DNA of 64,000 nt, taken from assembly GCA_024875585.1 (NCBI GenBank), contig GCA_024875585.1_4107.1; one strand, given 5' to 3'. The stretch comes from a phage. Shown one piece after another: positions 1,898 to 38,051 of the stretch. Numbering within the stretch: the first letter of the stretch is position 1; each line of letters starts with the position of its first letter. The translations under genes were made by a program, and so were the position numbers. The notes beneath the pieces were generated by a model that was given only the letters and a program-made list of their open reading frames with translations, ran no database searches and had not been told where the DNA came from.

Positions 1898-2212
1898 ATG
1901 AAAAACTTATTCAGTGTTCAGTACGTTCCAGGTGAAATTAGTTTATTGTATCTCTTTGACCATGATAATTCATTATTACTAGTAGTAAAGAAATGTCAAG
2001 CTAGTTCGTTTGTTGAATACATTCACGATAATGAATATATACCTGATTTTTTAGAGTGCGATTATTACGATGATCATGAATCATTTATTTTTCAGGAATC
2101 GCTAGTATGGGACAAATCGATTAACTTCTTTACGTTAATTGAATTACAAAAGCAAGTGAAGTATCATTGGGATTATTTAATTACACAGGATTACATTGAG
2201 ATAGAAATATAA
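1898..2212 (+). CDS. family-A-like protein (ESFIFQESLVWD)
   Basis: ORF; ATG at 1898 preceded by GAGG; divergent family motif. Confidence 0.55.
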   Translation: MKNLFSVQYVPGEISLLYLFDHDNSLLLVVKKCQASSFVEYIHDNEYIPDFLECDYYDDHESFIFQESLVWDKSINFFTLIELQKQVKYHWDYLITQDYIEIEI

Positions 2213-2454
2213 TGACTAAAAATGAATTTGATTCACTTTGTACTGTTTATAATTCATTAACAGAAATACCTAACTTTATTAGTTATATTTCAGCTTTAAA
2301 TCACATTATGCATAGTTTTGAACAATCGTTTGAAGAGAAATATGCTGGAAGAAAAGTTCTATGTCATATGCCAATGTACTTAGGAGATGGTGAGCCTTAC
2401 ACTACAAGTACTACATGTGAAATAAAAAATATAATATATTATTGGGTACTATAG
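2212..2454 (+). CDS. hypothetical small protein (family-B-like EKYAGRKV motif)
   Basis: 80-aa ORF, start overlaps previous stop. Confidence 0.5.
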   Translation: MTKNEFDSLCTVYNSLTEIPNFISYISALNHIMHSFEQSFEEKYAGRKVLCHMPMYLGDGEPYTTSTTCEIKNIIYYWVL

Positions 2455-2515
2455 AATTCACAGTATCCAATGGCGGTAGTTATATGTACTTTAGAGATGG
2501 AGTGGTTGAATTATT

Positions 2516-2965
2516 ATGAGTTACGAAAGTGCAATCAAGAAAGCAAATGATATTCTACGCGTCGTTCAATTCTTCAAAGAAAATCCTGAATACGTAGATG
2601 ATAAAAACCAAGAGCACGATGAGAGATTGAGACGAAAAATTATCTCTTTATTTGACACTAATAAAGATAATTGGAGTCTAATTGAGTTAGCATACGATTA
2701 TATTTCATTGAACCGAAATGATGATGTAGTTAAGATAGAAAGGCATGAGTCAGAAGAATCTTTTAGAATTTCAGATATTTTATCCCTGAGTACTGAAGAA
2801 GGGTACTTCCAGGGTAGCACTCTTTATAATGAAGAAACACTTGACAATCTATGCACATTCAGTGTAATATATCAGAAATCTGTACTAGATATATTTTATC
2901 TTGACACTGCTGAACTGCATACCCTAACCAATTTTGTTACTACCGAAGAGGCTACATTCGAGTGA
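2516..2965 (+). CDS. family-A small acidic protein (EEGYFQGSTLY)
   Basis: 149-aa ORF, family motif. Confidence 0.65.
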   Translation: MSYESAIKKANDILRVVQFFKENPEYVDDKNQEHDERLRRKIISLFDTNKDNWSLIELAYDYISLNRNDDVVKIERHESEESFRISDILSLSTEEGYFQGSTLYNEETLDNLCTFSVIYQKSVLDIFYLDTAELHTLTNFVTTEEATFE

Positions 2966-3498
2966 TGAAAGTTAACATTAATGACTTTGATGCATTACAA
3001 GATTTATCAAAAAAGATTCGCACCATCGTACCAGTACTTAAAAAATGCAGTACTGGTTTAATCGATCCTAGTTCTGTTGTCAATGAGAAGTACAATTTTC
3101 ATCGTGTATTACAGGGGACAGGTGCATTTCAGAAGTGTGAGGTACGTGAGAAACATGTAATTGATACATCGTTGTTTTCTATTGGTGCACCTGTGTCAAA
3201 CAATACTATTTTCCTGGATGCCGCTGGAAATATTCAACAATTAACATTTAAGAAAAGGAAAAAGAATAATAACATTGGTGTGTACGAGATGAAGTGGGGA
3301 CAGCCAGAGTTGATGCGTGACATTCACATTCCTAAGTACAATTTCAATGCATTTGAAGAACAGTGTTTTCAACTTTCTTGTACTGACCCTGACTATGCTA
3401 TCATTCAATTCTATATGGAATTGCAGATTGCATTTAATAGTAATTTGTATATTAACTTATTGGCAATGAACATAGATGAAGTATTCAAAAACATTTAA
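2962..3498 (+). CDS. family-A-like protein (EEQCFQLSCTDPDY)
   Basis: 178-aa ORF, ATGA overlap, divergent motif. Confidence 0.55.
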   Translation: MMKVNINDFDALQDLSKKIRTIVPVLKKCSTGLIDPSSVVNEKYNFHRVLQGTGAFQKCEVREKHVIDTSLFSIGAPVSNNTIFLDAAGNIQQLTFKKRKKNNNIGVYEMKWGQPELMRDIHIPKYNFNAFEEQCFQLSCTDPDYAIIQFYMELQIAFNSNLYINLLAMNIDEVFKNI

Positions 3499-3694
3499 TC
3501 GAATTGAATACATGAGAACTGTGAGAGCGGTGTGGAATATATGGTACACTACTAAACCAAAAATGGATTACCATGATTTTAAGCTCTTGTTCTTTGTTGG
3601 CTCTAACAAACAGGATGTTGCAATGAAGGGTTATATTCAGCACTTACAGGAACTAATCCAGAAGAGAATATATGAAAATAATAGACCAAAATGA
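3476..3694 (+). CDS. hypothetical protein
   Basis: 72-aa ORF in operon-like context; no recognisable motif. Confidence 0.4.
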   Translation: MKYSKTFNRIEYMRTVRAVWNIWYTTKPKMDYHDFKLLFFVGSNKQDVAMKGYIQHLQELIQKRIYENNRPK

Positions 3695-3863
3695 CATTGC
3701 TAAACTATTCAATATATATTCTACTAGAATGATGCAAACAGATTCATATAGTACTAAATTCAAAGAGTTGAAAGTACTGATGTACTTGGGAACACAATAT
3801 CAGGAACAAGTTATTTTAGAATATATTAATTCATTAAAGAAGGATATCCGTGATGTACGATGA
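3672..3863 (+). CDS. hypothetical protein
   Basis: 63-aa ORF; overlaps neighbours. Confidence 0.4.
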   Translation: MKIIDQNDIAKLFNIYSTRMMQTDSYSTKFKELKVLMYLGTQYQEQVILEYINSLKKDIRDVR

Positions 3864-4413
3864 TTTAGATCTTGCGTTTGAACGCATGAAAATTTTAATG
3901 CAATGCAATGAAATGCATGAGACAATCCGTCGCACCAAAGGGATTGAATATACAAGTAAACTATTCTCATACGAAAGTCGTCGAGGGATGGATCATTTTT
4001 ACTGCACTGATTGTTCAAAGTTTTCAGTACTGAAATATTATCATCCTACTGTTTCCAATAATAGTTTAATATCCACATATGACGGTGATCTGTTTAGTGT
4101 AATGTATGACACATTACATCCATCAATTTCAATATATAAAGATTGCGATAGTAGTCTATCGTATATAATTGAAGATTACTTATCTCCTAATACTGAAGAG
4201 AATATATTTCAAAACAGTGTATTGCATGATGAATTAAGTATAAAATGCATCTATATGTTCAATAAGTTAAAAGAATACGTTGATAATAATTACTTAATTG
4301 ATGAGTTAGCTGTGTTTTCGGTTTCAGTTTTCAATACAAATGATGTTGATATGAAATACTATAACGAAATTTGTAAAGTACATAACATGTATAAGGAACT
4401 CTTATGCTACTAA
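3850..4413 (+). CDS. family-A-like protein (ENIFQNSVLHDE)
   Basis: 187-aa ORF, motif. Confidence 0.6.
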   Translation: MMYDDLDLAFERMKILMQCNEMHETIRRTKGIEYTSKLFSYESRRGMDHFYCTDCSKFSVLKYYHPTVSNNSLISTYDGDLFSVMYDTLHPSISIYKDCDSSLSYIIEDYLSPNTEENIFQNSVLHDELSIKCIYMFNKLKEYVDNNYLIDELAVFSVSVFNTNDVDMKYYNEICKVHNMYKELLCY

Positions 4414-5006
4414 ATGCCAATAAATGTTGTAGTGCAAATGTGCATTTGTTTTTTAAGAAATTGGCAAATGATATTATATATATGCAGGAAATGATTTACC
4501 ACAAACGAACAGATTTAGAAAAAGCATTAGGACAGTTCTCATTTATGCTTGATGGTGATATATTTCTACATGGTGATACATTGCGAACAGTACTGGACGG
4601 AAATTCAAATAGAAGTTTCATTTGTACAAATAATAAATTTTCTTCCCCGATGTGCCGTACTTTTTATAATCCTGATTCGGACTTATATCAAGTGTCGTAT
4701 TCTAAAGGTGCAATTGAATCATCATATTGTGATAGTTCAGCTTTAGGTAAAAGTCGTCCATATATGCAATCATTTGAAATTGAACTCATCAGTACTGATG
4801 AAGATGCAATGTTCACAAATGATATAACGATGGATCGTGAATCGGCAATGATATATATTACAAATTCTATGCATACATTCTTTCAACGATTAGAATTTGA
4901 TAATGTATATATATCAAATGTAAATATTTTCAATGATCTGTGTCAGTACTTGAAAAGTGTTTGTGATTTTGATGAAAGCTATTGTAAGCTTTATACTGAG
5001 GTATAA
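4404..5006 (+). CDS. hypothetical protein (divergent family-A-like, EDAMFTNDI)
   Basis: 200-aa ORF. Confidence 0.5.
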   Translation: MLLNANKCCSANVHLFFKKLANDIIYMQEMIYHKRTDLEKALGQFSFMLDGDIFLHGDTLRTVLDGNSNRSFICTNNKFSSPMCRTFYNPDSDLYQVSYSKGAIESSYCDSSALGKSRPYMQSFEIELISTDEDAMFTNDITMDRESAMIYITNSMHTFFQRLEFDNVYISNVNIFNDLCQYLKSVCDFDESYCKLYTEV

Positions 5007-5011
5007 AACAA

Positions 5012-5374
5012 ATGAACACATTAAGTATTACATACTATACAACTAAAAAATTAGTTACTTGTTTAATATCATTGAAGTCAAAAAATGATGATATGTTTGA
5101 TATGGCTGCATATGAATTAGAATTATCAGAAGATGGTTTCAAGATCTATGAAGTATATAGCTATGTTCGTGAAGATGTAATTGACACTACACTAATGCAA
5201 GAGGATGAGTTATTCCAAGAAAGTTTAGTATGGGATAATAAGTACGATTGTAACTTTGATTTCTTATGTTTAATCCAAAAAGAAATGAAAAGAATCTTTG
5301 ATAATTATCCAATCAAACGTTTCAGTACTGCACCTGAGCAATATAAAAGGATTATATTCACCTATGAAGATTGA
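5012..5374 (+). CDS. family-A-like protein (DELFQESLVWDN)
   Basis: 120-aa ORF, motif. Confidence 0.6.
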   Translation: MNTLSITYYTTKKLVTCLISLKSKNDDMFDMAAYELELSEDGFKIYEVYSYVREDVIDTTLMQEDELFQESLVWDNKYDCNFDFLCLIQKEMKRIFDNYPIKRFSTAPEQYKRIIFTYED

Positions 5375-5741
5375 ATTTGAAGTTATTACATATAGTATAG
5401 GTGATGGTATCCGTTGCTACGTACAAGCAAGGCATATTGTTCCTGATGATAAACTGTCACCCAAAAGTTTCCTTATTACACAAGAACTCTTAGATATTAA
5501 CAGAGAGAACAAGTATACATATTATCTCACTAAGGGTTATTGTGGTTCGCGTGGATTTAATATTGTAGCTGTTTCTAGAGATGAAATTGATGATTTAACT
5601 GAGTACGGTGAAGAAGAGATGTTCCAGTACAGTACTGTTTTTAATGAACTGGATGTGTTTCTGTTACGAAAAATACAACACATTATGCAAGAATGTTTGC
5701 ATCATAAGAGAGGTATTGTATGCGACGTGAATCTGAATTAG
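5364..5741 (+). CDS. family-A protein (EEMFQYSTVF)
   Basis: ORF; start moved to ATG 5364 (track start 5298 would overlap the previous gene extensively). Confidence 0.55.
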   Translation: MKIEFEVITYSIGDGIRCYVQARHIVPDDKLSPKSFLITQELLDINRENKYTYYLTKGYCGSRGFNIVAVSRDEIDDLTEYGEEEMFQYSTVFNELDVFLLRKIQHIMQECLHHKRGIVCDVNLN

Positions 5742-6061
5742 TTAAAGTAATGTACGCTACTCATATTAAACTACTACTTGTGAAATTTGATTATAATATA
5801 AAACATAATGATTTCTATACGTTGATTCGTGATGAAAATTCATTCTCATTGCGATGCAACAATATACAGTGGACGATAAGTGATTTTACTTCACTTGACG
5901 AGGGTGAATTATTTCAAGAATCATTAGTTTTTAATAGTAATATAAAAGTTGATATAGAAGCAATTAAACAGTATCAAATATTATTAAACAAAATTATTGA
6001 TTGTTATCCATGTGAAATAGGTGGTCATATGCAGTTCAAATCAAAAATGTACGAGTTATGA
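5720..6061 (+). CDS. family-A-like protein (GELFQESLVF)
   Basis: 113-aa ORF, motif. Confidence 0.55.
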   Translation: MRRESELVKVMYATHIKLLLVKFDYNIKHNDFYTLIRDENSFSLRCNNIQWTISDFTSLDEGELFQESLVFNSNIKVDIEAIKQYQILLNKIIDCYPCEIGGHMQFKSKMYEL

Positions 6062-6068
6062 GGTCTTT

Positions 6069-6605
6069 ATGTTAGATAAAAAAATGAACACTGGAACTCT
6101 ATACAATCATCTTAAGTTGGATACTTTCGAATCAGCTATCAGTACTGCACAAGATATTATCGATATTATTAAGTACATTAAAGAAAATAAGTTAAAATGT
6201 GTGAAAACACCCGAACGTACAATGTATAAAGATGACTGTATTCACGTATCTGTTGTTAATCCAAAAGATAAGGATGGTAATAGAGATTTCTATAATAACA
6301 GTGAGCAGTTCGAATGTGAATATGATCCAGAATTCAGAGGTGGTTTCATGTGTTACAGTATGAAGGATACCTCACACATTGAGATACGTTCATCTAAAGG
6401 TGGCATACGTACATTAGAGTTCATTGATATAGTTTTAAATCAGGAATACTACTTTCAACTATCATTATTGTTTCCTGCATACGATTTAGGAGTTCTATTC
6501 ATGTATAAGTACTTTCATGAGCACTGGAATGAAGACTTCTATCTGGACTTAGAAGATTACCAATTAGTTTGGGAAGAAATGGTAGAACTTCGCAACCACT
6601 CTTGA
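6069..6605 (+). CDS. family-A protein (QEYYFQLSLLF)
   Basis: ORF; ATG 6069 after GAGG; motif. Confidence 0.6.
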   Translation: MLDKKMNTGTLYNHLKLDTFESAISTAQDIIDIIKYIKENKLKCVKTPERTMYKDDCIHVSVVNPKDKDGNRDFYNNSEQFECEYDPEFRGGFMCYSMKDTSHIEIRSSKGGIRTLEFIDIVLNQEYYFQLSLLFPAYDLGVLFMYKYFHEHWNEDFYLDLEDYQLVWEEMVELRNHS

Positions 6606-6631
6606 CACCCACCGATTTTTTGTGATATAAT
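6602..6631 (+). promoter_or_regulatory. sigma70-type promoter TTGACA-N18-TGaTATAAT (extended -10)
   Basis: TTGACA 6602-6607, TG 6623-6624, TATAAT 6626-6631, in the intergenic gap before ORF 6665; followed by a 5'UTR hairpin ccctttata...taaaggg. Confidence 0.6.
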
Positions 6632-6664
6632 CCCTTTATATTAATTTTAAAGGGTTATAACACA

Positions 6665-7141
6665 ATGTCCAACGAACTCACATTCACCAATGCACAAAAA
6701 ATAGCAAAAGACATTATCAGGGTTTATAAATTCCTTGCGAATGTTACTGAAGATTTTTTAATTGATAAAAATAAAGTTATTAAGCGAAATGGATACCTTT
6801 CCTTTATGGATGGGTTGCTCTATAGTTCAGATGAGTCAGCTTGTAGTATTAGAGTACTTGATACTGTACCAAGTGGTGATTTTATTTCATACCATTTTCC
6901 AAGTTCAGATAAGTTCAAATACTACAATAGTATTCTCATAGCAGAAGACTTTGATACGATTGTAATTAACACTGAAGAAGAGTTCTTCCAGTACAGTACT
7001 GTGTACCCAGAGAGGATTGTTTTCAGTTCAGTGATTTACACTACCCTTAAAAATGAACTAAATTCCGATAGTGATCATTTCTACTTGGACCTGAATAATA
7101 TCGATTGTATTATTGAGTACATGGAGAAAAATGGTTTATGA
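6665..7141 (+). CDS. family-A protein (EEEFFQYSTVY)
   Basis: 158-aa ORF, motif. Confidence 0.65.
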   Translation: MSNELTFTNAQKIAKDIIRVYKFLANVTEDFLIDKNKVIKRNGYLSFMDGLLYSSDESACSIRVLDTVPSGDFISYHFPSSDKFKYYNSILIAEDFDTIVINTEEEFFQYSTVYPERIVFSSVIYTTLKNELNSDSDHFYLDLNNIDCIIEYMEKNGL

Positions 7142-10436: not shown

Positions 10437-10460
10437 AGACCCGTTATGGGTCTTTTTGTG
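10437..10460 (+). terminator. rho-independent terminator
   Basis: hairpin agaccc-gttat-gggtct followed by TTTTT. Confidence 0.7.
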
Positions 10461-24868: not shown

Positions 24869-25144
24869 ATGAATTATAAATTTCTACAATATACATACAC
24901 AATATTATTTGATTTACATCACAATGGACGATATATCAACACAATACGAGAAAACACATTTACTCATATGTTATGGATTGATTACTTAGAAACGATTCGT
25001 GCATATTTTGTTAATACTGAGATAATCATTCGTGGTAAAAAACAGAAGATTCAACATGTTAATAGTTATGGTGGTAAATTAACTCTAACATTTACCGATA
25101 ATAATACTAATGAAATATGTTGTATCGAGTTGGTGAACATATGA
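24869..25144 (+). CDS. family-C small protein (N-terminal F.QYTYT.L motif)
   Basis: 91-aa ORF; paralogous to the next five ORFs. Confidence 0.6.
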   Translation: MNYKFLQYTYTILFDLHHNGRYINTIRENTFTHMLWIDYLETIRAYFVNTEIIIRGKKQKIQHVNSYGGKLTLTFTDNNTNEICCIELVNI

Positions 25145-25407
25145 ATTATAAAGATTTCCAATTAACATATAAGATTATTCGCAATCTAGCACACAGCAAT
25201 AATAGCCCTAGTCTAGAAGACACATGCACAGAAATGATCCATACGATTCGTGCAAAGATTGAAGAAAATTTCAGTACTGTTATTATTAATGATGACCATG
25301 CAGAATTTTCTGATATAATCATTAGACGTGATGGTAAAGTTGAGGTTCAGTACTACACTGATTTTGGATTTACAAGTGTACCGTTGGAGATATTCCCTTG
25401 GGATTAA
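25141..25407 (+). CDS. family-C small protein
   Basis: ORF starting MNYKDFQLTYKII; ATGA overlap. Confidence 0.55.
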   Translation: MNYKDFQLTYKIIRNLAHSNNSPSLEDTCTEMIHTIRAKIEENFSTVIINDDHAEFSDIIIRRDGKVEVQYYTDFGFTSVPLEIFPWD

Positions 25408-25709
25408 ATTTAAATGATATACAATTCACTTATAAGGTACTATATGATTTGTATGATGCATACCTTGTTAGTAACAAAATAGGTTCACATAACCCAACCA
25501 AAGAACAATCATTTATTGATTTATATATTGAGTACTTAGATTCTATTGAAAACTATCTCAAAAAGAATTACAGTACTTTTATCGATGGAAATGATACATT
25601 CGATTTCTATGGTGTGCAATCATATGATGGTATAATCCATGTTCAATTTCAGGAAAGAACCGATAGGGAATTTATCGAAATTAAAGTTGTGAAGTTGGTG
25701 AATTTATAA
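25398..25709 (+). CDS. family-C small protein
   Basis: ORF with DIQFTYKVLYDL; probable TTG start. Confidence 0.5.
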   Translation: MGLNLNDIQFTYKVLYDLYDAYLVSNKIGSHNPTKEQSFIDLYIEYLDSIENYLKKNYSTFIDGNDTFDFYGVQSYDGIIHVQFQERTDREFIEIKVVKLVNL

Positions 25710-25719: not shown

Positions 25720-26031
25720 ATGTTATTAAATGATATACAATTTACATACAAATTTTTGTATATCCAATTCGCAACGGTTGATGCTGGTGAATATATCTAC
25801 AGTGAAGTTTATCGTTCGATATGGATAAAGTTTTTAGATGAATTACATGAATATTACCATGATTTGCGTATAGTTCGTAATAATAAAATATACAAATTCC
25901 GCGATATTGTTAGTCATAGCGGTAAGCTACGATTGGAATTAAGTACTGATAGTGATGTTGATTGGATTGGTGTAAATTTACTGGAGTTGGAGAATGAAAA
26001 GCAACTTAAAGGAAATACAAGTATTTTATAA
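25720..26031 (+). CDS. family-C small protein
   Basis: ORF MLLNDIQFTYKFLY with AGAGG RBS. Confidence 0.6.
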   Translation: MLLNDIQFTYKFLYIQFATVDAGEYIYSEVYRSIWIKFLDELHEYYHDLRIVRNNKIYKFRDIVSHSGKLRLELSTDSDVDWIGVNLLELENEKQLKGNTSIL

Positions 26032-26278
26032 ATTCTTATACTTGTCATATGTTAAAGATGAGTACTATGAAAGTGTGTATTATTTTTTATGGCAACATTA
26101 CCGTACTATAGTAAGAGATTTATATCTAGGAAAATCTATCATATACAATGGTGAAAAATGTACATGTACGGATGTAGTTAGTTTTAATGGTTCTTTAACA
26201 CTGTGTTTCAGATGCGATAATAATAGTGGGTCATTTTCATTAAACGTATATCAGTTAGAAGGAATAAATTTTGAATAA
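25994..26278 (+). CDS. family-C small protein
   Basis: ORF with EIQVFYKFLYLS. Confidence 0.5.
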   Translation: MKSNLKEIQVFYKFLYLSYVKDEYYESVYYFLWQHYRTIVRDLYLGKSIIYNGEKCTCTDVVSFNGSLTLCFRCDNNSGSFSLNVYQLEGINFE

Positions 26279-26471
26279 GTGTCCATATTGTAACAGTACT
26301 CAATTAGCTCGTTTCCGTTTAGATTCAGACTGGGCAACTGGTGCTGGGGATTTCTTCCCTATTAATGATGATGCGGAATACACCGAAGAACAACACAAAG
26401 ATTTTGATAAATCATGGCGACCGGACATTGAGTGCATTTATTGCCTTAATTGTGAGCGTGTCCATGACTAA
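26271..26471 (+). CDS. small zinc-ribbon protein (CPYC...CIYCLNC)
   Basis: 66-aa ORF with two Cys pairs. Confidence 0.5.
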   Translation: MNKCPYCNSTQLARFRLDSDWATGAGDFFPINDDAEYTEEQHKDFDKSWRPDIECIYCLNCERVHD

Positions 26472-26727
26472 AGCTGAACTAATAGTTCATACATATAAAA
26501 TGATATCAAGTACTGAGTTATCATATAGTGAAGATAATCCGGTACTGGATTATTTTGTGGAATTATTGAAAGACCATTATATTGGTAAATCACTGAATCT
26601 TAATAATATTAATTTCACTGTAAAGGATGTAGCACCAGGTAAAAACGTACTAATAGTATGTGTTACTTCATCTGATAACCCAGTATACCCAATATCAATA
26701 ACTTTTGAGATATTAGGGGATGTATGA
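26464..26727 (+). CDS. family-B small protein (HYIGKSLNL)
   Basis: ORF; start ATG 26464 overlapping the previous stop. Confidence 0.5.
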   Translation: MTKAELIVHTYKMISSTELSYSEDNPVLDYFVELLKDHYIGKSLNLNNINFTVKDVAPGKNVLIVCVTSSDNPVYPISITFEILGDV

Positions 26728-27014
26728 ATATCATTTTAATACAAAAAACATATACTCTACTAATGAAAGAATATGCTAATACTTATGATGAAAGGTGTAG
26801 TGCAATTCATAATATGTATGAATTTATTACTCAAGAGTACAGGGATTATATATATGCTGCGTTAGTGGGTAGATATTTCAGTACTAGAAAATACCCAAAA
26901 CTTCAAATAGTTGATGTTTCTTTTTATTTCAATGGTCATATTACTATTCATAGTTTAGACCAAGATTCAACAACGTACTTAAACTTTTCATTTGATGAGG
27001 TAACATTTTTATGA
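26724..27014 (+). CDS. family-C small protein
   Basis: ORF with IQKTYTLLMKEY. Confidence 0.55.
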   Translation: MNIILIQKTYTLLMKEYANTYDERCSAIHNMYEFITQEYRDYIYAALVGRYFSTRKYPKLQIVDVSFYFNGHITIHSLDQDSTTYLNFSFDEVTFL

Positions 27015-27193
27015 GAACAGTATTTTTTATCTGGAGTCTTTTTTCATTGGCAGTACTGACAGTTTCAGGTGCTTATTCATTTTTAACAATGAACACATGG
27101 TATGTTAATTTACTATTCCCAATTGTTGGTGTTGGTTTAGGATTTAGTTTACATAGTGTATGTAAGGATTACAATGACAAATACAACAAATGA
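27011..27193 (+). CDS. small membrane protein (2 predicted TM helices)
   Basis: 60-aa hydrophobic ORF. Confidence 0.45.
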   Translation: MRTVFFIWSLFSLAVLTVSGAYSFLTMNTWYVNLLFPIVGVGLGFSLHSVCKDYNDKYNK

Positions 27194-27458
27194 AGTTCTT
27201 ATTGCTGAAACAATGAAGATGATTTACTTTATTACTACGGCACAGGATTTGTCTTATCCAGTGAAATCGTTACTTAGGTCAATGTATCTTGATATTGTAA
27301 AAGAATATTATAAATCTAAACACAGAAGCATTATTAGTGTTTATCGTGATTATGAAAGGATTCGTATTTTATTCTGGAACAAGAATCGAGTACGTTCTGA
27401 ATGTGATCTAGTAGATTTTAAATTAGAGAATCTTTATTGCTATAAACAGGAACAATAG
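27174..27458 (+). CDS. hypothetical small protein
   Basis: ORF; start ATG 27174. Confidence 0.45.
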   Translation: MTNTTNEVLIAETMKMIYFITTAQDLSYPVKSLLRSMYLDIVKEYYKSKHRSIISVYRDYERIRILFWNKNRVRSECDLVDFKLENLYCYKQEQ

Positions 27459-28255: not shown

Positions 28256-28540
28256 ATGGATTTATACTCACATGCTTGGACATTCGAACAGTATATTTCA
28301 TTATATAATGAAATTTACAATACTGATATGTCATACTGCAATTATTTTCGCAATATGATCGATGAATATTCAAAGGAATTTAATAGTTTATACCTTTATG
28401 TTAATAAAGAAGTTACACATAAGACTATGAATAAAACAGGTACAATTGATGAAATTTCATTTGATTCCTATGGTGTGTATTTCTATATTACATTTTCTGA
28501 TGATACTTTAGGTATACACACTTATAGTGAGTTAAAATAA
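28256..28540 (+). CDS. hypothetical small protein
   Basis: 94-aa ORF followed by a terminator. Confidence 0.55.
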   Translation: MDLYSHAWTFEQYISLYNEIYNTDMSYCNYFRNMIDEYSKEFNSLYLYVNKEVTHKTMNKTGTIDEISFDSYGVYFYITFSDDTLGIHTYSELK

Positions 28541-29473: not shown

Positions 29474-30159
29474 TTAAAGATTTAGATAGAATTTTATATG
29501 TACTAAGGGGTGTAATTACATTACATCCACACATCAATCGAATTGAAAGTACATTTCAGTTGGAGTCAAGAGAAACTCAATATTCACATATATCAAATGT
29601 AGTTGGCTCACTTAGTACTGAAGACTCGCCTTACGATATTTGTGTATGTGAAGTACAACCAAGTTCGGATCTTGGATTTGCTATTTTTGATAAAAATCAA
29701 AATCTCATTAGTATGTTTCAGTGCAATAATCCTTTTTGGAAAACATGCCTGTATCCAGAGTGGGCTATGCTTGATCCAACCAAGAGCACCATTAAAGTTT
29801 ATGACTCTAAAAATGATGAAGTCGTTATTGATTTGGATGAGTCAATGTCCGAGGAAGAACACTTTCAGCTAATGATGATGCGTGCTATGCCTGAATACAA
29901 TGCAATGATTAACACTGTGCAATACATTAAGGATACCATGCCATCATTGCGTACACATGAGTTTTGTCATCCGGTATTGTATGAACATTTAGATTTAGAT
30001 TTCAGTACTATTAAATTTAAAGATAGTGTCATTGAGTATATCCAAGAGGTTACTAAATTCGATTTCATTAGTACAATGAATAATAACCCTGAAACAAATT
30101 TCAGACGACAATACAATGAATCTTTGTCTAATGGACGTGATACAAGTTGGTGGAAATAA
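29470..30159 (+). CDS. family-A-like protein (EEEHFQLMMMR)
   Basis: 229-aa ORF. Confidence 0.6.
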   Translation: MIKDLDRILYVLRGVITLHPHINRIESTFQLESRETQYSHISNVVGSLSTEDSPYDICVCEVQPSSDLGFAIFDKNQNLISMFQCNNPFWKTCLYPEWAMLDPTKSTIKVYDSKNDEVVIDLDESMSEEEHFQLMMMRAMPEYNAMINTVQYIKDTMPSLRTHEFCHPVLYEHLDLDFSTIKFKDSVIEYIQEVTKFDFISTMNNNPETNFRRQYNESLSNGRDTSWWK

Positions 30160-30160
30160 T

Positions 30161-30424
30161 ATGAATATTCAAGATAGATTACAATTACTATACACTATTG
30201 AACAGGCTGCTTTTGAACTTGTTAATAAAATCTCCGAAGAACTTCCCAAAGGAACTATAGTTCGTGTACGTGAGAGGGATTATGAATCTGGAGAAATTGA
30301 AGAACTAGTACTGACCGTGAATAAAGTAACATACTATGAATCTGAGTTGGCTATCCAATGTAGATCGGAAGATGGTAAAATATACTATTATGACACTGGT
30401 GTAGATATAGAGGTAATAAAATGA
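30161..30424 (+). CDS. family-B small protein
   Basis: ORF; ATG 30161. Confidence 0.5.
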   Translation: MNIQDRLQLLYTIEQAAFELVNKISEELPKGTIVRVRERDYESGEIEELVLTVNKVTYYESELAIQCRSEDGKIYYYDTGVDIEVIK

Positions 30425-31563: not shown

Positions 31564-31593
31564 TACTAACTAGCCTAAGCACAAGGAGAAGTG

Positions 31594-31848: not shown

Positions 31849-31857
31849 GGAGTTCAT

Positions 31858-32088
31858 ATGAAAGTTGAAGTTCAGCATAGTATTGTTCAAGATATGTCTG
31901 TAGTTAAATTTCTTTCATTAAAAGATTACTTTAGATGTATCAAGTTCCTAGAAGAATCTCATTTAAAATGGACTCCATTAAAGTACAGTTCATCCAAAGA
32001 CACTGCTAGTATTCGTTGTGATGAAGCTGTACTCGTAAAAATCTCTAAAAGATTTGGGATAGGTAAAGTGAATGAGCACAGTAAATGA
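31858..32088 (+). CDS. hypothetical small protein
   Basis: 76-aa ORF. Confidence 0.5.
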   Translation: MKVEVQHSIVQDMSVVKFLSLKDYFRCIKFLEESHLKWTPLKYSSSKDTASIRCDEAVLVKISKRFGIGKVNEHSK

Positions 32089-32326
32089 ACTAAAATACTA
32101 CAACAAAATTGCGGATACGTTTATTACTCATTTATATGAAGAATTCAGTAGTATCCGCAAGGAATATACAGGTAAATGTATTTTATATAGTTCTTATCTT
32201 AGTGGAAGAATTGAACGTGCTTACATTACTAAAGTGAAGTTTTCTGATGATTATCAATTACTATTTGAATTGGATGATTGTTTAGTCATTGAAGCTGATT
32301 TAATAGTAGATGTGCTGAACAATTGA
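32072..32326 (+). CDS. hypothetical small protein
   Basis: 84-aa ORF. Confidence 0.5.
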   Translation: MSTVNELKYYNKIADTFITHLYEEFSSIRKEYTGKCILYSSYLSGRIERAYITKVKFSDDYQLLFELDDCLVIEADLIVDVLNN

Positions 32327-32332
32327 GGACAT

Positions 32333-32647
32333 ATGAATAAAGAACTTGCATATAAGGGTATCGAAAAGCTAAAGTTCGTTGAAAAGGAACTAATAGAATC
32401 AGTTGAAACAATGGTTGAAGATTACGTTTTTGATTTTAAGAAAACATTAATTGGATGTAAAGTCAAATGCTGGGATCATACCATTAGAGAATGGTTCAGT
32501 GCTATAATTCTTGATGTTAAAGTATCTCGAACTGGTATTGGTAACTTAGTAAATGGTGAATGCTTTGTATACACTGAATACAATAACGGTACAAGACACC
32601 TTTCAAAAGGATGGCACAATCTCGAAGATGTAGAATTCATTGAGTAA
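32333..32647 (+). CDS. family-B small protein (LIGCKVKC)
   Basis: 104-aa ORF. Confidence 0.5.
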   Translation: MNKELAYKGIEKLKFVEKELIESVETMVEDYVFDFKKTLIGCKVKCWDHTIREWFSAIILDVKVSRTGIGNLVNGECFVYTEYNNGTRHLSKGWHNLEDVEFIE

Positions 32648-32659
32648 CAAGGAGTAATA

Positions 32660-33592
32660 ATGCCAACTATCACCTTAACAATTGGGTTGCCTGGGTGTGG
32701 TAAAACTACATGGGCAGTGCAAGAGATTAAAAACGCCAAATCTAAGACTATCAACATCAACCGTGATGATATTCGTGAATCTATGGCGGGGTCACATGAT
32801 GCTTACAAATTCAACGATGCTAATGAGCAGTACGTAACTACTTTACAGTTCAGTGCAGCAAATTTAGCAGCAGAGAATGGTTGGAACATCATCATATCCG
32901 ATACGAACCTTAAACAACATTTCCGTGATCTCTGGAAAGTATGGGCTAAAGATAATGATTATGATTACAAAGAAAAGAACTTCTATGATGATTTTGTACC
33001 TAATGAAGACCGTGGTGCAGATGTTCATGAATTCTTTAAGATTAAAGAGTTCGTAAAACTTTGTAAGAAATATAACCGCCAGCGTGAGCGTTCAGTACAA
33101 GATAATATCATTGACACTATGGCAGATACTTACTATTATAGTAAAGCAATGCACATTGGTTACTATGGTAATTCAAGAGAAGCCGCTGTTATCGTTGATA
33201 TTGACGGAACTCTTGCTCATAAATGGGGTCGTAATCCTTACGATGAAAGTACTGTACTACAAGATACACCAGATGAAGAAGTTATTTTGTCTATTATCGC
33301 TGAAGCAGTTTTCCATAAACGTAAGATTATTGTAATGAGTGGGCGTACTGAAGGGTGTCGTGCAGACACAGAACAGTGGCTTAAGAATTGGGGTGTTCCT
33401 TACGATGCATTGTTTATGCGAGGCATCGATGATAAACGACCCGATGATGTGGTAAAATATGAGTTGTATATGAATAACGTCGTGCATCATTACGATGTTA
33501 AAAAAGTATACGATGACAGATCACAAGTCGTATTCATGTGGCGTAAACTACTTGGATTAAAAGTGATGCAAGTTGCAGAAGGAAATTTCTGA
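32660..33592 (+). CDS. pseT: polynucleotide 5'-kinase/3'-phosphatase (T4 PseT-like)
   Basis: P-loop GLPGCGKTT in the N-terminal kinase domain; HAD phosphatase motif DIDGTLA plus DDR near the C-terminus; AAGGAG RBS. Confidence 0.9.
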   Translation: MPTITLTIGLPGCGKTTWAVQEIKNAKSKTININRDDIRESMAGSHDAYKFNDANEQYVTTLQFSAANLAAENGWNIIISDTNLKQHFRDLWKVWAKDNDYDYKEKNFYDDFVPNEDRGADVHEFFKIKEFVKLCKKYNRQRERSVQDNIIDTMADTYYYSKAMHIGYYGNSREAAVIVDIDGTLAHKWGRNPYDESTVLQDTPDEEVILSIIAEAVFHKRKIIVMSGRTEGCRADTEQWLKNWGVPYDALFMRGIDDKRPDDVVKYELYMNNVVHHYDVKKVYDDRSQVVFMWRKLLGLKVMQVAEGNF

Positions 33593-33597
33593 CACAA

Positions 33598-33628
33598 AAG
33601 GGATCAATGTATGATCCCTTTTTCTTTT
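33598..33628 (+). terminator. rho-independent terminator
   Basis: hairpin gggatca-atgta-tgatccc then TTTTTC. Confidence 0.8.
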
Positions 33629-33640
33629 AAGGTATATTAT

Positions 33641-33817
33641 AATGAATGTAAAAACACAGATGTTATTACAAAAAGAATACTTAGAAAATATAGAAATGTT
33701 CTATAGATTGTCTTTATACGAAAATAAACATAAAAAATATAACTTTTCTAAACAACTAACCACAAGTACTAATGATTATCTATTTTCATCAATGTTTTAT
33801 GTGAGAGGTTTATTATA
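33641..33817 (+). CDS. small hypothetical protein (58 aa)
   Basis: ORF below track cutoff; stop overlaps the next ATG (TAATG). Confidence 0.3.
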
Positions 33818-34075
33818 ATGGATAAATTTCACACAGATATAACACAGATAGGTAATCTTATCAATAGTCTAATTACTGATTTAGAAGAAAAGTACTTAGG
33901 TCGAAATGTATACGTTGAAATGTATGAAACATATGGTGTTATTGATATGATTTATTACAGTGCATTGAAGTGTGAAATACGTTTAACAGTATGTTTGTTT
34001 GAAAAAGATACATTCAACAGAAGTACTGCAATTCGTCAGGTTGGTGTAGATGACATTGAATTATATGAGGAATAA
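33818..34075 (+). CDS. family-B small protein (KYLGRNVYV)
   Basis: 85-aa ORF. Confidence 0.55.
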   Translation: MDKFHTDITQIGNLINSLITDLEEKYLGRNVYVEMYETYGVIDMIYYSALKCEIRLTVCLFEKDTFNRSTAIRQVGVDDIELYEE

Positions 34076-34329
34076 TGATGTTTGAACAGGACGTAGAGCT
34101 ATTCAAAAGACATATTGAATATTTGACTGTTTTAGAGAATGATTTAACCACAAAATACAAAGGAATTAGAGTCCAGTGTTGGTATGATGACTGGGATTAT
34201 AAAAGGGAACTTACTATTGACCGAATTTATTTCAGTGATGGTGTACTGAATGTACATGGTGTAAATGATTTTGGTCATTCATATACATATTCTAATAATG
34301 CTAAATTTAAAAGGATCTGCAATGAATGA
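34075..34329 (+). CDS. family-B small protein (KYKGIRVQC)
   Basis: 84-aa ORF. Confidence 0.55.
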   Translation: MMFEQDVELFKRHIEYLTVLENDLTTKYKGIRVQCWYDDWDYKRELTIDRIYFSDGVLNVHGVNDFGHSYTYSNNAKFKRICNE

Positions 34330-34624
34330 ATATTATCATAATTTATTCGATTACATAAAACTAATAGATGATCTTTCTTTTGAATTTCTCAGTACTGAAA
34401 AAGTTGATGAACCTCTCTATTATGATTGTATTAGTTCACTGTGTTTAGATGAAAAAGAGATATTAGCAAATAACTTACCATCCACGGTCTGTGTAATCAA
34501 TGGTTCCAAGGCTGTGGTGTCTGAGGTTAATTTTCATAAATCACTTAATACAATTGTTTACAAGTTCGATAACACTTGGTTTAATCACGTAACTAGTAAT
34601 ATTAAATCTGTGAGATTTTTATGA
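34322..34624 (+). CDS. hypothetical small protein
   Basis: ORF; start ATG 34322. Confidence 0.5.
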   Translation: MNEYYHNLFDYIKLIDDLSFEFLSTEKVDEPLYYDCISSLCLDEKEILANNLPSTVCVINGSKAVVSEVNFHKSLNTIVYKFDNTWFNHVTSNIKSVRFL

Positions 34625-34917
34625 ATATAAAAAAATTATTTGAACAAGTAAATTTATTGTACTTGTGTTCAGACGGCTCAGATAAGGAATATAGTGAAGT
34701 TTATTTAGAACTATTTAGAACTGAAATACATCTAATTCGAAGATACCTAATTGATAACAAAACTGAAGTAAAAGTTAGATACCATAATGGTACTTTAAAG
34801 AATGGTATAATTATTGGATTGATAGTTACAAGAATGTCCAGTAATATTAAAGTTGCAGTAAGATTAATGACTGATGATGGTGTCTACACAATAGAAGCTA
34901 ATGAGATTATATATTAA
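34621..34917 (+). CDS. hypothetical small protein
   Basis: 98-aa ORF, ATGA overlap. Confidence 0.5.
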   Translation: MNIKKLFEQVNLLYLCSDGSDKEYSEVYLELFRTEIHLIRRYLIDNKTEVKVRYHNGTLKNGIIIGLIVTRMSSNIKVAVRLMTDDGVYTIEANEIIY

Positions 34918-35223
34918 ATGGATATACAAACATTCAATAAACTAAAGTACTATGATAATGGTTTTGTATTAATAATTAACGAACTTGATAGTATACCATA
35001 CGAATATCATAATCAAGTAATGAATATAGTAAAAAATATATGTGAAGAACTAAAAAGTATATTTAAAAATGAATATGTTTATGATTTAGGTAATAATAGA
35101 ACAAAACTATACATAAAGAAATTCTGGGGAACACATTGTGGTTTGATGGTCGATTTGGGTTTAAGTTTAGACAATAATTTCGAATCATGTTCATTATATT
35201 TGGACGAAATGAGAATCTCATGA
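34918..35223 (+). CDS. hypothetical small protein
   Basis: 101-aa ORF. Confidence 0.5.
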   Translation: MDIQTFNKLKYYDNGFVLIINELDSIPYEYHNQVMNIVKNICEELKSIFKNEYVYDLGNNRTKLYIKKFWGTHCGLMVDLGLSLDNNFESCSLYLDEMRIS

Positions 35224-35240
35224 GACATAAGGACATTCGG

Positions 35241-35249
35241 TGATATAAT
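35241..35249 (+). promoter_or_regulatory. TGATATAAT extended -10 promoter element
   Basis: intergenic, upstream of ORF 35281. Confidence 0.45.
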
Positions 35250-35280
35250 TTGATTATATCATTAATAAGGAGAGGTTGAA

Positions 35281-35607
35281 GTGAATGGGTCGTTTTTAGA
35301 AATACTAGAAAAGACAACTGGGATGCTTTCAAGTTCACTAATGCACATTTTCAGTACTAGTAATTTTTACGATTCGCGTGTGTTAGATGTAATTTGTAAT
35401 AGCTATGTTGAATGTGTGTCTAATACAATATGTCCATTTAACGCTTATTCAAATGATGGTGTTGAAAAGTTTATTATATCCAAGATTCAATGTGGTTTTG
35501 GTGATTGGATAGTTCTATGTGAACGTAGTGGTGTGTCTTTATACATCGAAGAAATTGGAAAATTTATATACAAAGGAGTAGAATATGTTAGTCCCAATTA
35601 TTATTAG
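35281..35607 (+). CDS. hypothetical protein
   Basis: 108-aa ORF; GTG start after AAGGAGAGG. Confidence 0.5.
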   Translation: MNGSFLEILEKTTGMLSSSLMHIFSTSNFYDSRVLDVICNSYVECVSNTICPFNAYSNDGVEKFIISKIQCGFGDWIVLCERSGVSLYIEEIGKFIYKGVEYVSPNYY

Positions 35608-36232
35608 TAGTGCATATGTCATCGGTATTATTATTTCTGGTATGCTTGCATATAACTATAACAGAAGTATTCTAGGTTATGCAGTACTTGGTGCAGTTCT
35701 AAGTCCAGTAATTGCAATTGGTGTTCTTATCATCTTAGGTGAGAAAAACACAAAATATTTTATTACTGAAGAACTTGATAAAATCACTCCAGCACCGGAG
35801 ACGGTTATTCCAGAAGTTGAAGAAGAAGTAAAAGAAGTTGAAGTTCAAATGCAAGTTAAAGTACATAATACACTCGAAGAAACTGATCCTAAAGTTGTGG
35901 TGAATGTAGTTCCTGTCGTTGAAGATGTAAAACCAAAAGCCCAAAGATCCAAAAAAACCACTAAAACACAGAAAAATACTAAAACTGCAAAAAAATCACG
36001 TAACACTAAAGGTAAGAATAAAGGGAAATCGACGGATGAACAACAACTAGGTGTTCATAACCATACTGCACAAATTACATCGGCAGCGGCAGCGGGGGCA
36101 ATCGTAACATCACCAATCTACAACAATGATGATTACAGTGATTATAGTCGTCACAGTAGTTCCCCTTCTGATTCTTGTTCTTATGATAGTTCTAGCTCTG
36201 ATTCAAGTTCATCTTCTGGAAGTTGTGATTAA
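35585..36232 (+). CDS. membrane protein with Lys-rich linker and Ser/Asp-rich C-terminal tail
   Basis: two N-terminal hydrophobic helices, then a KTQKNTKTAKK stretch, then SSSDSSSSSGS low complexity. Confidence 0.55.
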   Translation: MLVPIIISSAYVIGIIISGMLAYNYNRSILGYAVLGAVLSPVIAIGVLIILGEKNTKYFITEELDKITPAPETVIPEVEEEVKEVEVQMQVKVHNTLEETDPKVVVNVVPVVEDVKPKAQRSKKTTKTQKNTKTAKKSRNTKGKNKGKSTDEQQLGVHNHTAQITSAAAAGAIVTSPIYNNDDYSDYSRHSSSPSDSCSYDSSSSDSSSSSGSCD

Positions 36233-36561
36233 TGTCAATGAAACCACTAATTCAACATAATATTTTTTATAGTTCATTATTCAAAATACAAGATGATTTT
36301 TATCAGACGTTGAGTAATGATCTTATAGGTAAAACTGTACGATATTCGGACCAATACATCAAACGTATGACAAGTCAGTATATTGACCCTGAATACGAAT
36401 ACGACATTGAACACATTAATCCCAATACTAGAATGAAAATCATTGAGATATTTAAGAATGGGAGAACTATAGGTGCTGAAATTGAGTACTTGAATTGTGA
36501 TTGTTATATAGATACAGAGTTGAGTTTGGATTATCTTGTTTTAGTGGATGATGAGGAATAA
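36232..36561 (+). CDS. family-B small protein (LIGKTVRY)
   Basis: 109-aa ORF. Confidence 0.55.
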   Translation: MSMKPLIQHNIFYSSLFKIQDDFYQTLSNDLIGKTVRYSDQYIKRMTSQYIDPEYEYDIEHINPNTRMKIIEIFKNGRTIGAEIEYLNCDCYIDTELSLDYLVLVDDEE

Positions 36562-36563
36562 TT

Positions 36564-36779
36564 ATGATAACATTTTTCGCAATATATGGATTTGTGGTAT
36601 TTGTCACATTTATAACCAACTTTTTAGTACTTAATTGGGGTTGTTTTAAAGATGAAATCATGATTGCCATGAATCTCCAAACAGCCGCACTAATGGCTAT
36701 TATTTGGCCTGTAACGTTAGTATACCTTTTTATTTCACTTACTCAAGATATTATTAACAAATATAAGAGAAAGAACTAA
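36564..36779 (+). CDS. small membrane protein
   Basis: 71-aa ORF with two hydrophobic segments. Confidence 0.5.
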   Translation: MITFFAIYGFVVFVTFITNFLVLNWGCFKDEIMIAMNLQTAALMAIIWPVTLVYLFISLTQDIINKYKRKN

Positions 36780-37036
36780 TGTTCAAAACCGACTTATCAC
36801 ATTTTCGATATCTTAGGTCTTTGGCTGATGATTTTATAAATGATCTTAAGCCAAAATATATTGGTCAAGAAGTACGATTAATAAACTCCAGAGGGTATGG
36901 AAAGTATATTATATCGGATATGTATATTAGTGCAGGTGAGTGGCGTTTTAAAATTAACACTTATCTTAAAGATGGTTCTTTTGCTGGAACACAAGTTACT
37001 AAACATACTAATATTATATGGTTGGAGCAACAATGA
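36779..37036 (+). CDS. family-B small protein (KYIGQEVRL)
   Basis: 85-aa ORF. Confidence 0.55.
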   Translation: MFKTDLSHFRYLRSLADDFINDLKPKYIGQEVRLINSRGYGKYIISDMYISAGEWRFKINTYLKDGSFAGTQVTKHTNIIWLEQQ

Positions 37037-37776
37037 AACACTTTTTAGAAGTAACCGTGCCTGATGATAAAGATTTATATATTGTAGGTGATTTGCATGG
37101 TAATGGTAAACTATGGGATGCTACAGTAAAAGAATTTGGTATTACACACAATGATTATGTTTTCAGTGTAGGTGATGTTATCGACCGTGGAGAACAAAAT
37201 TCAAAGCTCCTATTTGAATTTTTGTTCGGAGAAAATCGTTACATGATTGCTGGAAATCATGAGATGATGTGTGTTGATTCAGAAACACTTCGAGATTGGT
37301 ATCATTGTTGGATAAGTAATGGCGGTGATAAATTCCTTGATGAAGTTGGGGGAACAGGCATTCAATTCTTTCGTCAGTACTTGAAAGATTTACCTATGAT
37401 TATCCAAATCAACCATAGAGGCTTGAAGATCGGGTTAGTTCATGCTGGAGTTCCTTTGGAATATACAACATGGGAACGATTTGTTAATGGGACAAAATCA
37501 CTTAGTGCTGATATAGTTGATAAGTGTTTGTGGGATAGGAAAACATTCGATTATTGTAGGACAAATAATACTTATTATGCACCTAAGTTAGATGGAGTGC
37601 ATTGTGTCTTTAGTGGACATACAGCAGTTACTGAACCACTCATTTATGGCAATCGCATTTGGATTGATAGTCAGTTCTTGACGGGTGACTTAACTCTCGC
37701 TACTCCACAAAGTGGTGGGATGAGATACTTACGTAAAGAAAAAGATGAGTACTCATTCAGTCGTTTCAAAAGGTAA
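37033..37776 (+). CDS. PPP-family metallophosphatase (Ser/Thr phosphatase or ApaH-like)
   Basis: signature motifs GDLHGN, GDVIDRG, GNHE. Confidence 0.75.
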   Translation: MKHFLEVTVPDDKDLYIVGDLHGNGKLWDATVKEFGITHNDYVFSVGDVIDRGEQNSKLLFEFLFGENRYMIAGNHEMMCVDSETLRDWYHCWISNGGDKFLDEVGGTGIQFFRQYLKDLPMIIQINHRGLKIGLVHAGVPLEYTTWERFVNGTKSLSADIVDKCLWDRKTFDYCRTNNTYYAPKLDGVHCVFSGHTAVTEPLIYGNRIWIDSQFLTGDLTLATPQSGGMRYLRKEKDEYSFSRFKR

Positions 37777-37781
37777 TAATT

Positions 37782-38051
37782 ATGCATGATGTAGTTAAAA
37801 AATATTTGAATGATAGATATATCATGGAAAAATCTATTAATTCTATCCTAAAAGATCATGATAATCAAATACGTGAGATTCTATCAAATAAACTTATTGG
37901 TTGTTCAGTTGAGTTCAACTACAAAAAGAATGTAGTGAAGATTGGAGTTATTAAACGTGTAGTTGCTGTTTATGTCCAAAATGTATATGTTGAAATTGAA
38001 TATGATGGTAAATTATCACAATTAAGCACTGAAGATTTAACATTTTTATAA
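37782..38051 (+). CDS. family-B small protein (LIGCSVEF)
   Basis: 89-aa ORF. Confidence 0.55.
   Translation: MHDVVKKYLNDRYIMEKSINSILKDHDNQIREILSNKLIGCSVEFNYKKNVVKIGVIKRVVAVYVQNVYVEIEYDGKLSQLSTEDLTFL

Follow-up and report, generated by a model that had tools for sequence, protein, structure and literature searches.

A superfamily of small, predicted helix-plus-barrel proteins amplified among nucleic-acid enzyme genes in Rak2-like jumbo phages

The 64,000-nucleotide stretch of phage DNA analysed here in its whole length (the window; contig GCA_024875585.1_4107.1) carries nearly all of its genes on the + strand, has a G+C content of 31–36% and, judging from its sequence, is part of an Asteriusvirus jumbo coliphage of the 121Q/PBECO4 group. 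A megablast search with positions 30000–40000 matched 36 phage records, all of them jumbo phages of this genus (121Q, PBECO4 and relatives; coliphage or Salmonella), and the closest, UE-S1, is 98.5% identical over 100% of the query. Eight short open reading frames (ORFs), named here by their first position (2212, 26464, 32333, 33818, 34075, 36232, 36779 and 37782), had been singled out in the original prediction as a dispersed family that shares a [KE]Y[IL]G..V motif and is interleaved with genes for nucleic-acid enzymes. The interleaving is indeed there, the neighbours being genes for Dam, a nucleotidyltransferase, RnlA, polynucleotide kinase/phosphatase (PNK), a Ser/Thr phosphatase and DNA ligase, and terminator-like hairpins at 21395, 24828, 28547 and 33596 divide the genes into operon-like blocks headed by family members. 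Here, we report that seven of the eight ORFs are homologous and that, together with genes overlooked until now, they make up one tandemly amplified superfamily.

All eight ORFs were recovered on the + strand at the positions originally given, with the quoted peptides, and they coincide with gene calls in 121Q (8/8) and UE-S1 (7/8, 36779 being the exception). In the latter record the 36779 gene is annotated as just a 38-residue fragment (26920–27036 of the UE-S1 segment compared), yet the full 85-residue ORF (26779–27036) is intact, an inconsistency of the public record. ORF 2212 (2212–2454) is truncated in the window to 80 residues, the last eight of which are an unrelated tail. A nucleotide alignment with gp376 of phage 121Q places a frameshift in a run of adenines at 2424–2429 (six in the window, seven in 121Q); an intact gene would extend to 2519 and encode 102 residues, the form found when gp376 was inspected directly, and all 21 other Asteriusvirus records that match ORF 2212 align to residues 1–72 only. 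The frameshift is either a homopolymer sequencing error or a fresh pseudogene, and the frame-restored version (2212fs) was used in later comparisons.

The motif starts at residues 25–43, close to the range of about 25–40 first proposed. Its literal form fits only 33818 and 36779; what is real in it is a pair of sharper sub-patterns that lie far above shuffled expectation among the 136 window proteins. The first, KY.G..V, occurs four times against 0.20 expected (2212, 33818, 34075 and 36779), and the second, LIG[CK].V, four times against 0.02 (32333, 36232, 37782 and the OB domain of the DNA ligase). Enrichment is slight for the loosest form, [YL].G..[VL], with 30 occurrences versus 18 expected.

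That mild enrichment would suit the view that there is no family and that unrelated short ORFs share the motif by chance or through the composition of an AT-rich genome, and so would the shallower searches. Within the window, BLASTP and phmmer linked 33818 with 36779 (E 6e-4) and 2212 with 33818 (E 2e-3), single-sequence links being limited to these three; a hidden Markov model (HMM) seeded with the three recruited no further window members, and PHROG cross-matches among 2212, 33818, 34075 and 36779 were weak (E 0.01–0.1). Thin profiles drawn from sequenced Asteriusvirus genomes, too shallow because their orthologues are >90% identical, left 32333, 36232 and 37782 at the level of the reversed controls. 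What proved decisive was to run a four-paralogue HMM exhaustively against 1.84 billion representative proteins; this returned four useful distant members (P0013, P0015, P0016 and P0018) from diverged yet syntenic contigs (L005, L006, L007–L009 and L010); three further candidates from the same search (P0014, P0017 and P0019) were spurious repeat proteins and were discarded. Reciprocal-best-hit orthologue groups were assembled for 35 small ORFs, with zero sequences common to two groups, and all pairs of groups were compared by hhalign against a null of reversed templates. Iterated profiles gave very high scores and were set aside as evidence, since these profiles shared sequences; non-overlapping ones replaced them. 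The null, from 595 reversed pairs, had a mean of 10.4, a standard deviation of 2.1 and a maximum of 18.3, and 58 real pairs exceeded that maximum. With divergent orthologues included, all seven ORFs join at scores of 26–46, and the mean among the eight listed ORFs is 23.1 as against 11.0 for reversed templates. Moreover, the alignments run through the barrel described below (as for 32333 and 37782), the C-terminal strand is also common, reversed-profile controls were empty, and HMM matches recur at syntenic positions in Klebsiella phage K64-1. The flanks are thus alignable rather than a low-complexity match, and for seven of the eight ORFs coincidence is refuted (the orthologue groups share no sequences), which leaves this view scarcely credible.

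At a score of at least 25 the groups fall into two components. Family B comprises 11 genes (2212fs, 26724, 28256, 30116, 32072, 32333, 33818, 34075, 36232, 36779 and 37782) and family A six (24869, 25117, 25398, 25720, 25994 and 26464). Seven of the eight ORFs of the original prediction therefore belong to family B, and 26464 groups with the tandem family A; four family-B genes with scores of at least 25 had been overlooked (26724, 28256, 30116 and 32072), and 27183 and 34621 probably lie on the sister-family side. HMM searches place several members further: an iterated HMM from 25720 recruits 26464 orthologues, one from 36779 recruits 32333 orthologues at E<1e-5, and a family HMM matches a positional homologue of 30116 upstream of the K64-1 RnlA gene at E 3.3e-10. 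The family B (FB) HMM matches 37782 at E 8.8e-14, a value that includes the contribution of 37782 itself to the training set. The family A (FA) HMM matches the orthologue of 34621 in the relative vB_Ec-M-J at E 5.5e-4, and the reversed maximum for the FA-profile comparisons of 27183 and 34621 is 13.

The two families are not independent of each other. Their profiles align in register from the end of the helix through the motif into the strands (score 23.7 versus 10.7 reversed), and the FA HMM, which contains zero family-B sequences, matches 26724 and its orthologues, as well as orthologues of 36232, 36779 and 34621, at E 1.6e-4 to 1.7e-3 among 480 ORFs; HMMs built from reversed alignments gave no match at E<1. 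Families A and B therefore form a single superfamily with at least 17 genes, and on sequence similarity the window may hold perhaps about 20 (Table 1). What had been called a third lineage-specific family is lineage-restricted and homologous, as proposed, and is joined to tandem family A rather than separate from it.

Table 1. Superfamily members and neighbouring enzyme genes in the window (hhalign scores are given with the partner ORF)
Feature	Position	Strand	Evidence
Family B, orthologue of 121Q gp376	2212..2519 (ORF stops 2454)	+	hhalign 27.3 with 33818, 23.2 with 34075; FB HMM E 9.5e-12
Dam methyltransferase	22608		annotation in relatives, Pfam on orthologues
Nucleotidyltransferase	23126		annotation in relatives, Pfam on orthologues
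Family A, tandem array	24869..25144	+	hhalign 86.7 with 25720; FA HMM E 3.4e-32
Family A	25117..25407	+	hhalign 41.9 with 25398
Family A	25398..25709	+	hhalign 57.6 with 25720
Family A	25720..26031	+	BLASTP/phmmer within window; hhalign
Family A, LYLGKSI at motif position	25994..26278	+	hhalign 67.1 with 25720
Family A, listed in the original prediction (HYIGKSLNL)	26464..26727	+	hhalign 29.8 with 25720, 22.4 with 24869, 21.5 with 36779
Family B, overlooked (ALVGRYF), bridges A and B	26724..27014	+	hhalign 25.1 with 34075, 23.8 with 37782; FA HMM E 1.6e-4
Probable superfamily member, family A side	27183..27458	+	hhalign against FA profile 71%, score 30.6, reversed 10.7
Family B, overlooked	28256..28540	+	hhalign 26.9 with 36779 (20-79 vs 1-60)
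Family B, overlooked, directly upstream of RnlA	30116..30424 (start may be 30137)	+	hhalign 28.6 with 34075, full length
RnlA RNA ligase	30421		annotation in relatives, Pfam on orthologues
Family B, overlooked (EYTGKCILY)	32072..32326	+	hhalign 27.4 with 36232, 26.3 with 36779
Family B (LIGCKVKC)	32333..32647	+	hhalign 28.9 with 36232, 28.5 with 36779, 27.6 with 37782 (residues 20-85 vs 15-76)
PNK	32660		annotation in relatives, Pfam on orthologues
Family B (KYLGRNV)	33818..34075	+	hhalign 45.6 with 36779; AlphaFold2 helix 3-26 and 5 strands, pLDDT 61
Family B (KYKGIRV), confident structure model	34075..34329	+	hhalign 35.2 with 36779; AlphaFold2
Probable superfamily member, family A side	34621..34917	+	hhalign against FA profile 48%, score 26.6, full length
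Family B (LIGKTVRY), longer insert inside barrel	36232..36561	+	hhalign 39.0 with 36779, 28.9 with 32333
Family B (KYIGQEV), similarity-network hub, isoelectric point 9.3	36779..37036	+	hhalign, HMM
Ser/Thr phosphatase	37018		annotation in relatives, Pfam on orthologues
Family B (LIGCSVEF), most peripheral of the listed ORFs	37782..38051	+	hhalign 27.6 with 32333 (20-85 vs 15-76 for the pair 32333-37782), 26.1 with 36232
DNA ligase	39910		annotation in relatives, Pfam on orthologues

Each superfamily protein is predicted to be a single domain, in which an N-terminal amphipathic helix of about 25 residues precedes a five-stranded SH3-like (Sm/Tudor-type) beta-barrel. The proteins are 84–109 residues long and cytoplasmic in character, without signal or transmembrane features and without a catalytic signature; 14 of the 17 are acidic (isoelectric point <6, and 4.4–5.4 in 11 of them), and 36779 alone is clearly basic. 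AlphaFold2 modelling of 34075 from a 13-sequence family alignment gave a predicted local distance difference test (pLDDT) score of 93.9 and a predicted template modelling score of 0.78, with all five models at 93.1 or above. The predicted structure comprises a helix at residues 3–28 and strands at 32–36, 44–54, 57–63, 69–73 and 77–80, and so combines the N-terminal helix with the five-stranded, strongly bent antiparallel sheet of the Sm fold. A second model, of 33818 from nine sequences, shows the same topology and order of elements and is too poor (pLDDT 61) for a fold search. Both bear out the beta-rich C-terminal region proposed at the outset. One K64-1 protein matched by a family HMM, gp589 (K64_16177-16446), is annotated as a 'membrane protein', and looks mis-annotated if its fold is helix-plus-barrel.

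In the 34075 model the helix ends with K27 and Y28, the linker contains G30 and strand 1 contains V33, which makes the motif, as modelled, the hinge between helix and barrel. Across 56 family-B sequences it reads [K/E]-[Y/L]-h-G-[K/R]-x-[V/I], with K (28) or E (8) at position 0, Y (31) or L (22) at position 1, a hydrophobic residue (h) at position 2, G (49) at position 3, K (22) or R (10) at position 4, and V (41), I (8) or F (4) at position 6; Y/L at position 1 and V/I/F at position 6 are each found in 53 of the 56. The only columns of the family alignment conserved in >80% of sequences are the initiator methionine and then the hinge Y/L, G and V/I. According to the model, K and Y/L would end the helix, G would make the turn, and the core of strand 1 would begin with V/I, and this hinge role would be why the motif outlasts the divergence of the remaining sequence. 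The motif is thus, as modelled, a structural hinge rather than a demonstrated functional site. The last strand supplies a second common element, D/E-h-x-[FL]-h, as in 'EDLTFL', 'DEVTFL', 'EDVEFIE' and 'DDIELYE'.

When the 34075 model was searched against PDB and BFVD with Foldseek, no match reached E ≤0.001. The best PDB match had E 0.077, with WYL domains of PafBC, CapW and BrxR at the top, followed by Tudor, chromo and Rof structures, and the BFVD matches were weak (E ≥0.006) and included four Klebsiella phage RaK2 proteins of about 90 residues, one PBECO4 protein and one 121Q protein. Pfam gave no consistent match, either for the eight ORFs or for 39 members, and a PDB sequence-profile search likewise gave none. 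The domain is an Sm/Tudor-type superfold outside every described family.

The distribution of the superfamily is narrow. A tBLASTn search of 50,697 phage records with 33818 and 2212 found none outside Asteriusvirus, and a word-indexed search of 5.8 billion proteins returned nothing but orthologues with a 4-member profile and gave 13 matches with a broad 39-member profile, the named sources being all E. coli phage or E. coli assemblies; the search of 1.84 billion representatives yielded, apart from spurious repeat proteins, only relatives in Asteriusvirus-like contigs. Conservation in relatives, put forward as a check on the family, was found at syntenic positions in the divergent contigs L005, L006 and L007 and in K64-1 (genus Alcyoneusvirus), where seven FB and three FA HMM matches (E 3e-10 to 9e-4, 106 ORFs) lie in the syntenic block 283080–293077, some of them in matching positions, immediately upstream of RnlA and immediately ahead of the phosphatase gene. 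The superfamily is therefore older than the Asteriusvirus/Alcyoneusvirus split, and on the sequences searched it appears limited to Rak2-like jumbo phages, K64-1 among them. The 17 window genes, mutually homologous, clustered and confined to one clade, represent a lineage-specific paralogous expansion.

Several features mark these ORFs, on comparative grounds, as real, expressed-type genes. Orthologues with 31–88% identity occupy syntenic positions in L005 and L007, and the ratio of nonsynonymous to synonymous substitution rates was 0.02–0.58 against 121Q and vB_Ec-M-J for the 11 genes tested, which places them under purifying selection. At the same time, the family genes have diverged at about twice the rate of their neighbours, with median identities of 39% versus 76% for other genes when compared with L005, 41% versus 83% with L007 and 73% versus 87% with vB_Ec-M-J (L004). 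Individual genes depart from the overall relatedness of the genomes: 32333 is 88% identical to its counterpart in metagenomic contig L005 and 40% to that of the otherwise closer vB_Ec-M-J, 26464 is 85% identical to L007 and 28% to vB_Ec-M-J, and 25994 is 94–96% identical to vB_Ec-M-J and L007 and 35% to L005. For 32072, BLAST and reciprocal-best-hit comparisons gave no qualifying vB_Ec-M-J counterpart, and additional copies occur in relatives (the 6.7-kb contig L006, for instance, has three more). Such mosaic identities, contrary to genome relatedness, imply the exchange of single small-gene cassettes between lineages, and the sequence record as a whole points to birth-and-death evolution with cassette exchange.

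The small-gene array and its surroundings contain further features. In vB_Ec-M-J an extra 'endonuclease' gene (29029–29952 of the segment compared), which the window and 121Q do not have, lies between the counterparts of 27183 and 27508, and is probably a mobile homing-endonuclease insertion within the array. Adjoining the phosphatase, 38062–38289 encodes a 75-residue protein with two CXXC pairs that is kept in all relatives; it matches DnaJ_CXXCXGXG and Anti-TRAP weakly, is labelled a DnaJ-like chaperone in 121Q, and is a stand-alone zinc-finger protein. A second, far larger tandem array of mutually similar ORFs of 140–200 residues occupies 74–1896 and 2516–17807; its first four ORFs are linked by BLASTP within the window down to 1e-30, weaker links extend as far as about 10.4 kb via a common motif near residues 100–140, and a comparable array lies upstream of the Dam gene of K64-1. 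The interval 21371–21995, about 620 nucleotides in length and preceded by a strong terminator-like hairpin (21395–21420), is unusually long for one without a conserved annotated gene, and its sole ORF (21690–21905) is Cys- and Arg-rich and looks non-coding. Five mini-ORFs of 45–70 residues at 46663–48072 (+) share a repeated peptide (…VT.PV..T.A..G…) with identity of up to 56%; several of them (about 47.2–48.1 kb) are antisense to a 633-residue minus-strand gene annotated in UE-S1 (37200–39101 of the UE-S1 segment compared), and instead of being genes the five mini-ORFs probably reflect an internal DNA repeat in this region. No tRNA genes were found in the whole 64-kb window.

Considering the homology, fold, restricted distribution, purifying selection, fast divergence and mosaicism described above, we favour, at a probability of about 0.55, the reading that these proteins are non-enzymatic binding modules whose paralogues are partner-specific and act in host takeover or counter-defence. 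The superfamily would then be a single lineage-specific, tandemly amplified set of small, mostly acidic, cytoplasmic proteins of Rak2-like jumbo phages, in which each paralogue may present a different surface on the common scaffold to a different partner (a host or phage protein, or nucleic acid), the set as a whole serving host takeover or counter-defence. Partner-specific modules would explain the duplication, the roughly twofold divergence and the cassette exchange between lineages. In line with this reading, Pfam, PDB sequence-profile and Foldseek searches gave no enzyme-like match, the 121Q record annotates no orthologue as a virion protein, and in phage CBB a region rich in short hypothetical ORFs has been suspected to hold early host-takeover genes (PMC5259590). 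Several points weigh against it. The genes may also diverge fast because they are dispensable and under relaxed constraint, and not because of an arms race. The fold of the LIG sub-group (32333, 36232 and 37782) is assigned via homology only, because just one superfamily member has a confident model. A scan for sigma-70 promoters found 121 sites against 111 expected in this AT-rich DNA, which tells nothing about expression timing; that timing, like the binding function and the partners of all members, we infer.

The barrel topology and the location of the genes make it attractive to regard the proteins as phage Sm/Hfq-like, putative RNA-binding proteins that would assemble into homo- or hetero-oligomeric rings and act with the adjacent RNA-repair enzymes. 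Indeed, RnlA and PNK are flanked by family genes in all relatives examined, two of the BFVD matches are labelled phage 'RNA binding protein', and the number of paralogues recalls the eukaryotic Sm ring, which is built from seven. However, Pfam LSM/Hfq (Sm1/Sm2 motifs) matched none of the eight ORFs at E ≤10 and none of the 39 members at E ≤1, the PDB sequence-profile search matched no Sm or Hfq chain, the helix of about 26 residues is far longer than an Sm helix, and Tudor and BAH matches are equally good; the acidity of 14 of the 17 members, unusual for RNA binders, is a weaker argument in the same direction. We therefore regard this role, the chief alternative to the favoured reading, as unlikely. 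A more specific form, in which hetero-oligomeric Sm-like rings of paralogues would organize or protect RNA together with RnlA, PNK and the phosphatase, for example by holding cleaved tRNAs or mRNAs for repair under attack by a host anticodon nuclease, is highly improbable; if true, it would give bacterial viruses their first heteromeric Sm-type assembly.

The same barrel could instead make the proteins Tudor/SH3-type adaptors that dock on host RNA polymerase or Rho and redirect or shut off host transcription, as precedents such as the C-terminal Tudor domain of UvrD/PcrA and Rof/YaeO allow. The structural matches on which this idea would draw are weak, no better than those to unrelated barrels, and sequence similarity is absent; we consider it quite unlikely in its own right, and it is in any case a special case of the favoured binding modules rather than a distinct mechanism. 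A place in the complex 121Q-type particle, as decoration, chaperone or internal proteins, would fit the many minor structural proteins of jumbo phages of the 121Q group and the SH3-like barrels present in some phage structural proteins. Yet no orthologue is flagged 'structural' in the 121Q record, whereas the nearby gp468 and gp471 are; the genes stand in a nucleic-acid metabolism block and not in a morphogenesis block, and rapid cassette turnover is atypical of assembly components, all of which makes a virion role very improbable.

In a 14-kb stretch of these therapeutic-candidate jumbo coliphages, roughly every second short 'hypothetical' gene can be assigned to one superfamily with a defined fold, which turns at least 17 orphans into one tractable question. 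A conserved scaffold and hinge, fast-diverging surfaces, cassette exchange and a position beside RNA/DNA-end repair enzymes in two genera are the usual signature of phage proteins directed at variable host targets, and therefore this superfamily is a reasonable place to seek host-takeover or anti-defence activities. Paralogous expansions of orphan genes are common in jumbo phages and expected by specialists, and what we describe is a new family of this familiar kind, a lineage-specific expansion of a small SH3-like barrel protein. The individual genes were already catalogued, the eight listed ORFs each falling into a separate PHROG orphan cluster of 'unknown function' (phrog_11429, 29519, 33398, 37322, 31355, 29135, 38615 and 33961; E 4e-20 to 6e-74), with the weak cross-matches among four of them noted above. 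The superfamily, its fold and its extent were not described in the papers searched, and literature searches on 121Q-like phages and jumbo-phage comparative genomics turned up neither a description of the family nor a transcriptome from the genus.

Among known barrels, Sm/LSm/Hfq proteins (including Gemin6/7) differ from the superfamily in carrying Sm1/Sm2 motifs; its helix is 2–3 times longer than theirs and most of its members are acidic. Tudor, chromo-barrel, BAH and BirA C-terminal SH3-like barrels are domains of larger proteins, whereas those described here stand alone, and the aromatic cage of Tudor and chromo-barrel domains is not conserved, the aromatic residues of 34075 not being kept in its paralogues. 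The WYL domains of the defence and stress regulators PafBC, CapW and BrxR, which gave the top Foldseek matches in PDB, resemble the superfamily in pairing an Sm-like barrel with a preceding helix, but the matches reach only E 0.08–0.6 and template modelling scores of about 0.45–0.5, and the single-domain family proteins lack a W-Y-L signature, a Pfam WYL match and a fused helix-turn-helix. The closest parallels in genome organization are the lineage-specific expansion of about 35 zinc-ribbon copies in Bacillus phage G (PMC7824862) and the 22 paralogous ORFs of phage CBB (PMC5259590). In those phages, as here, many diverged copies of one small domain cluster among short hypothetical genes; the superfamily differs from them in its fold and phage lineage, in the interleaving of its copies with RNA/DNA-end-processing enzymes, and in a position that has been kept across two genera.

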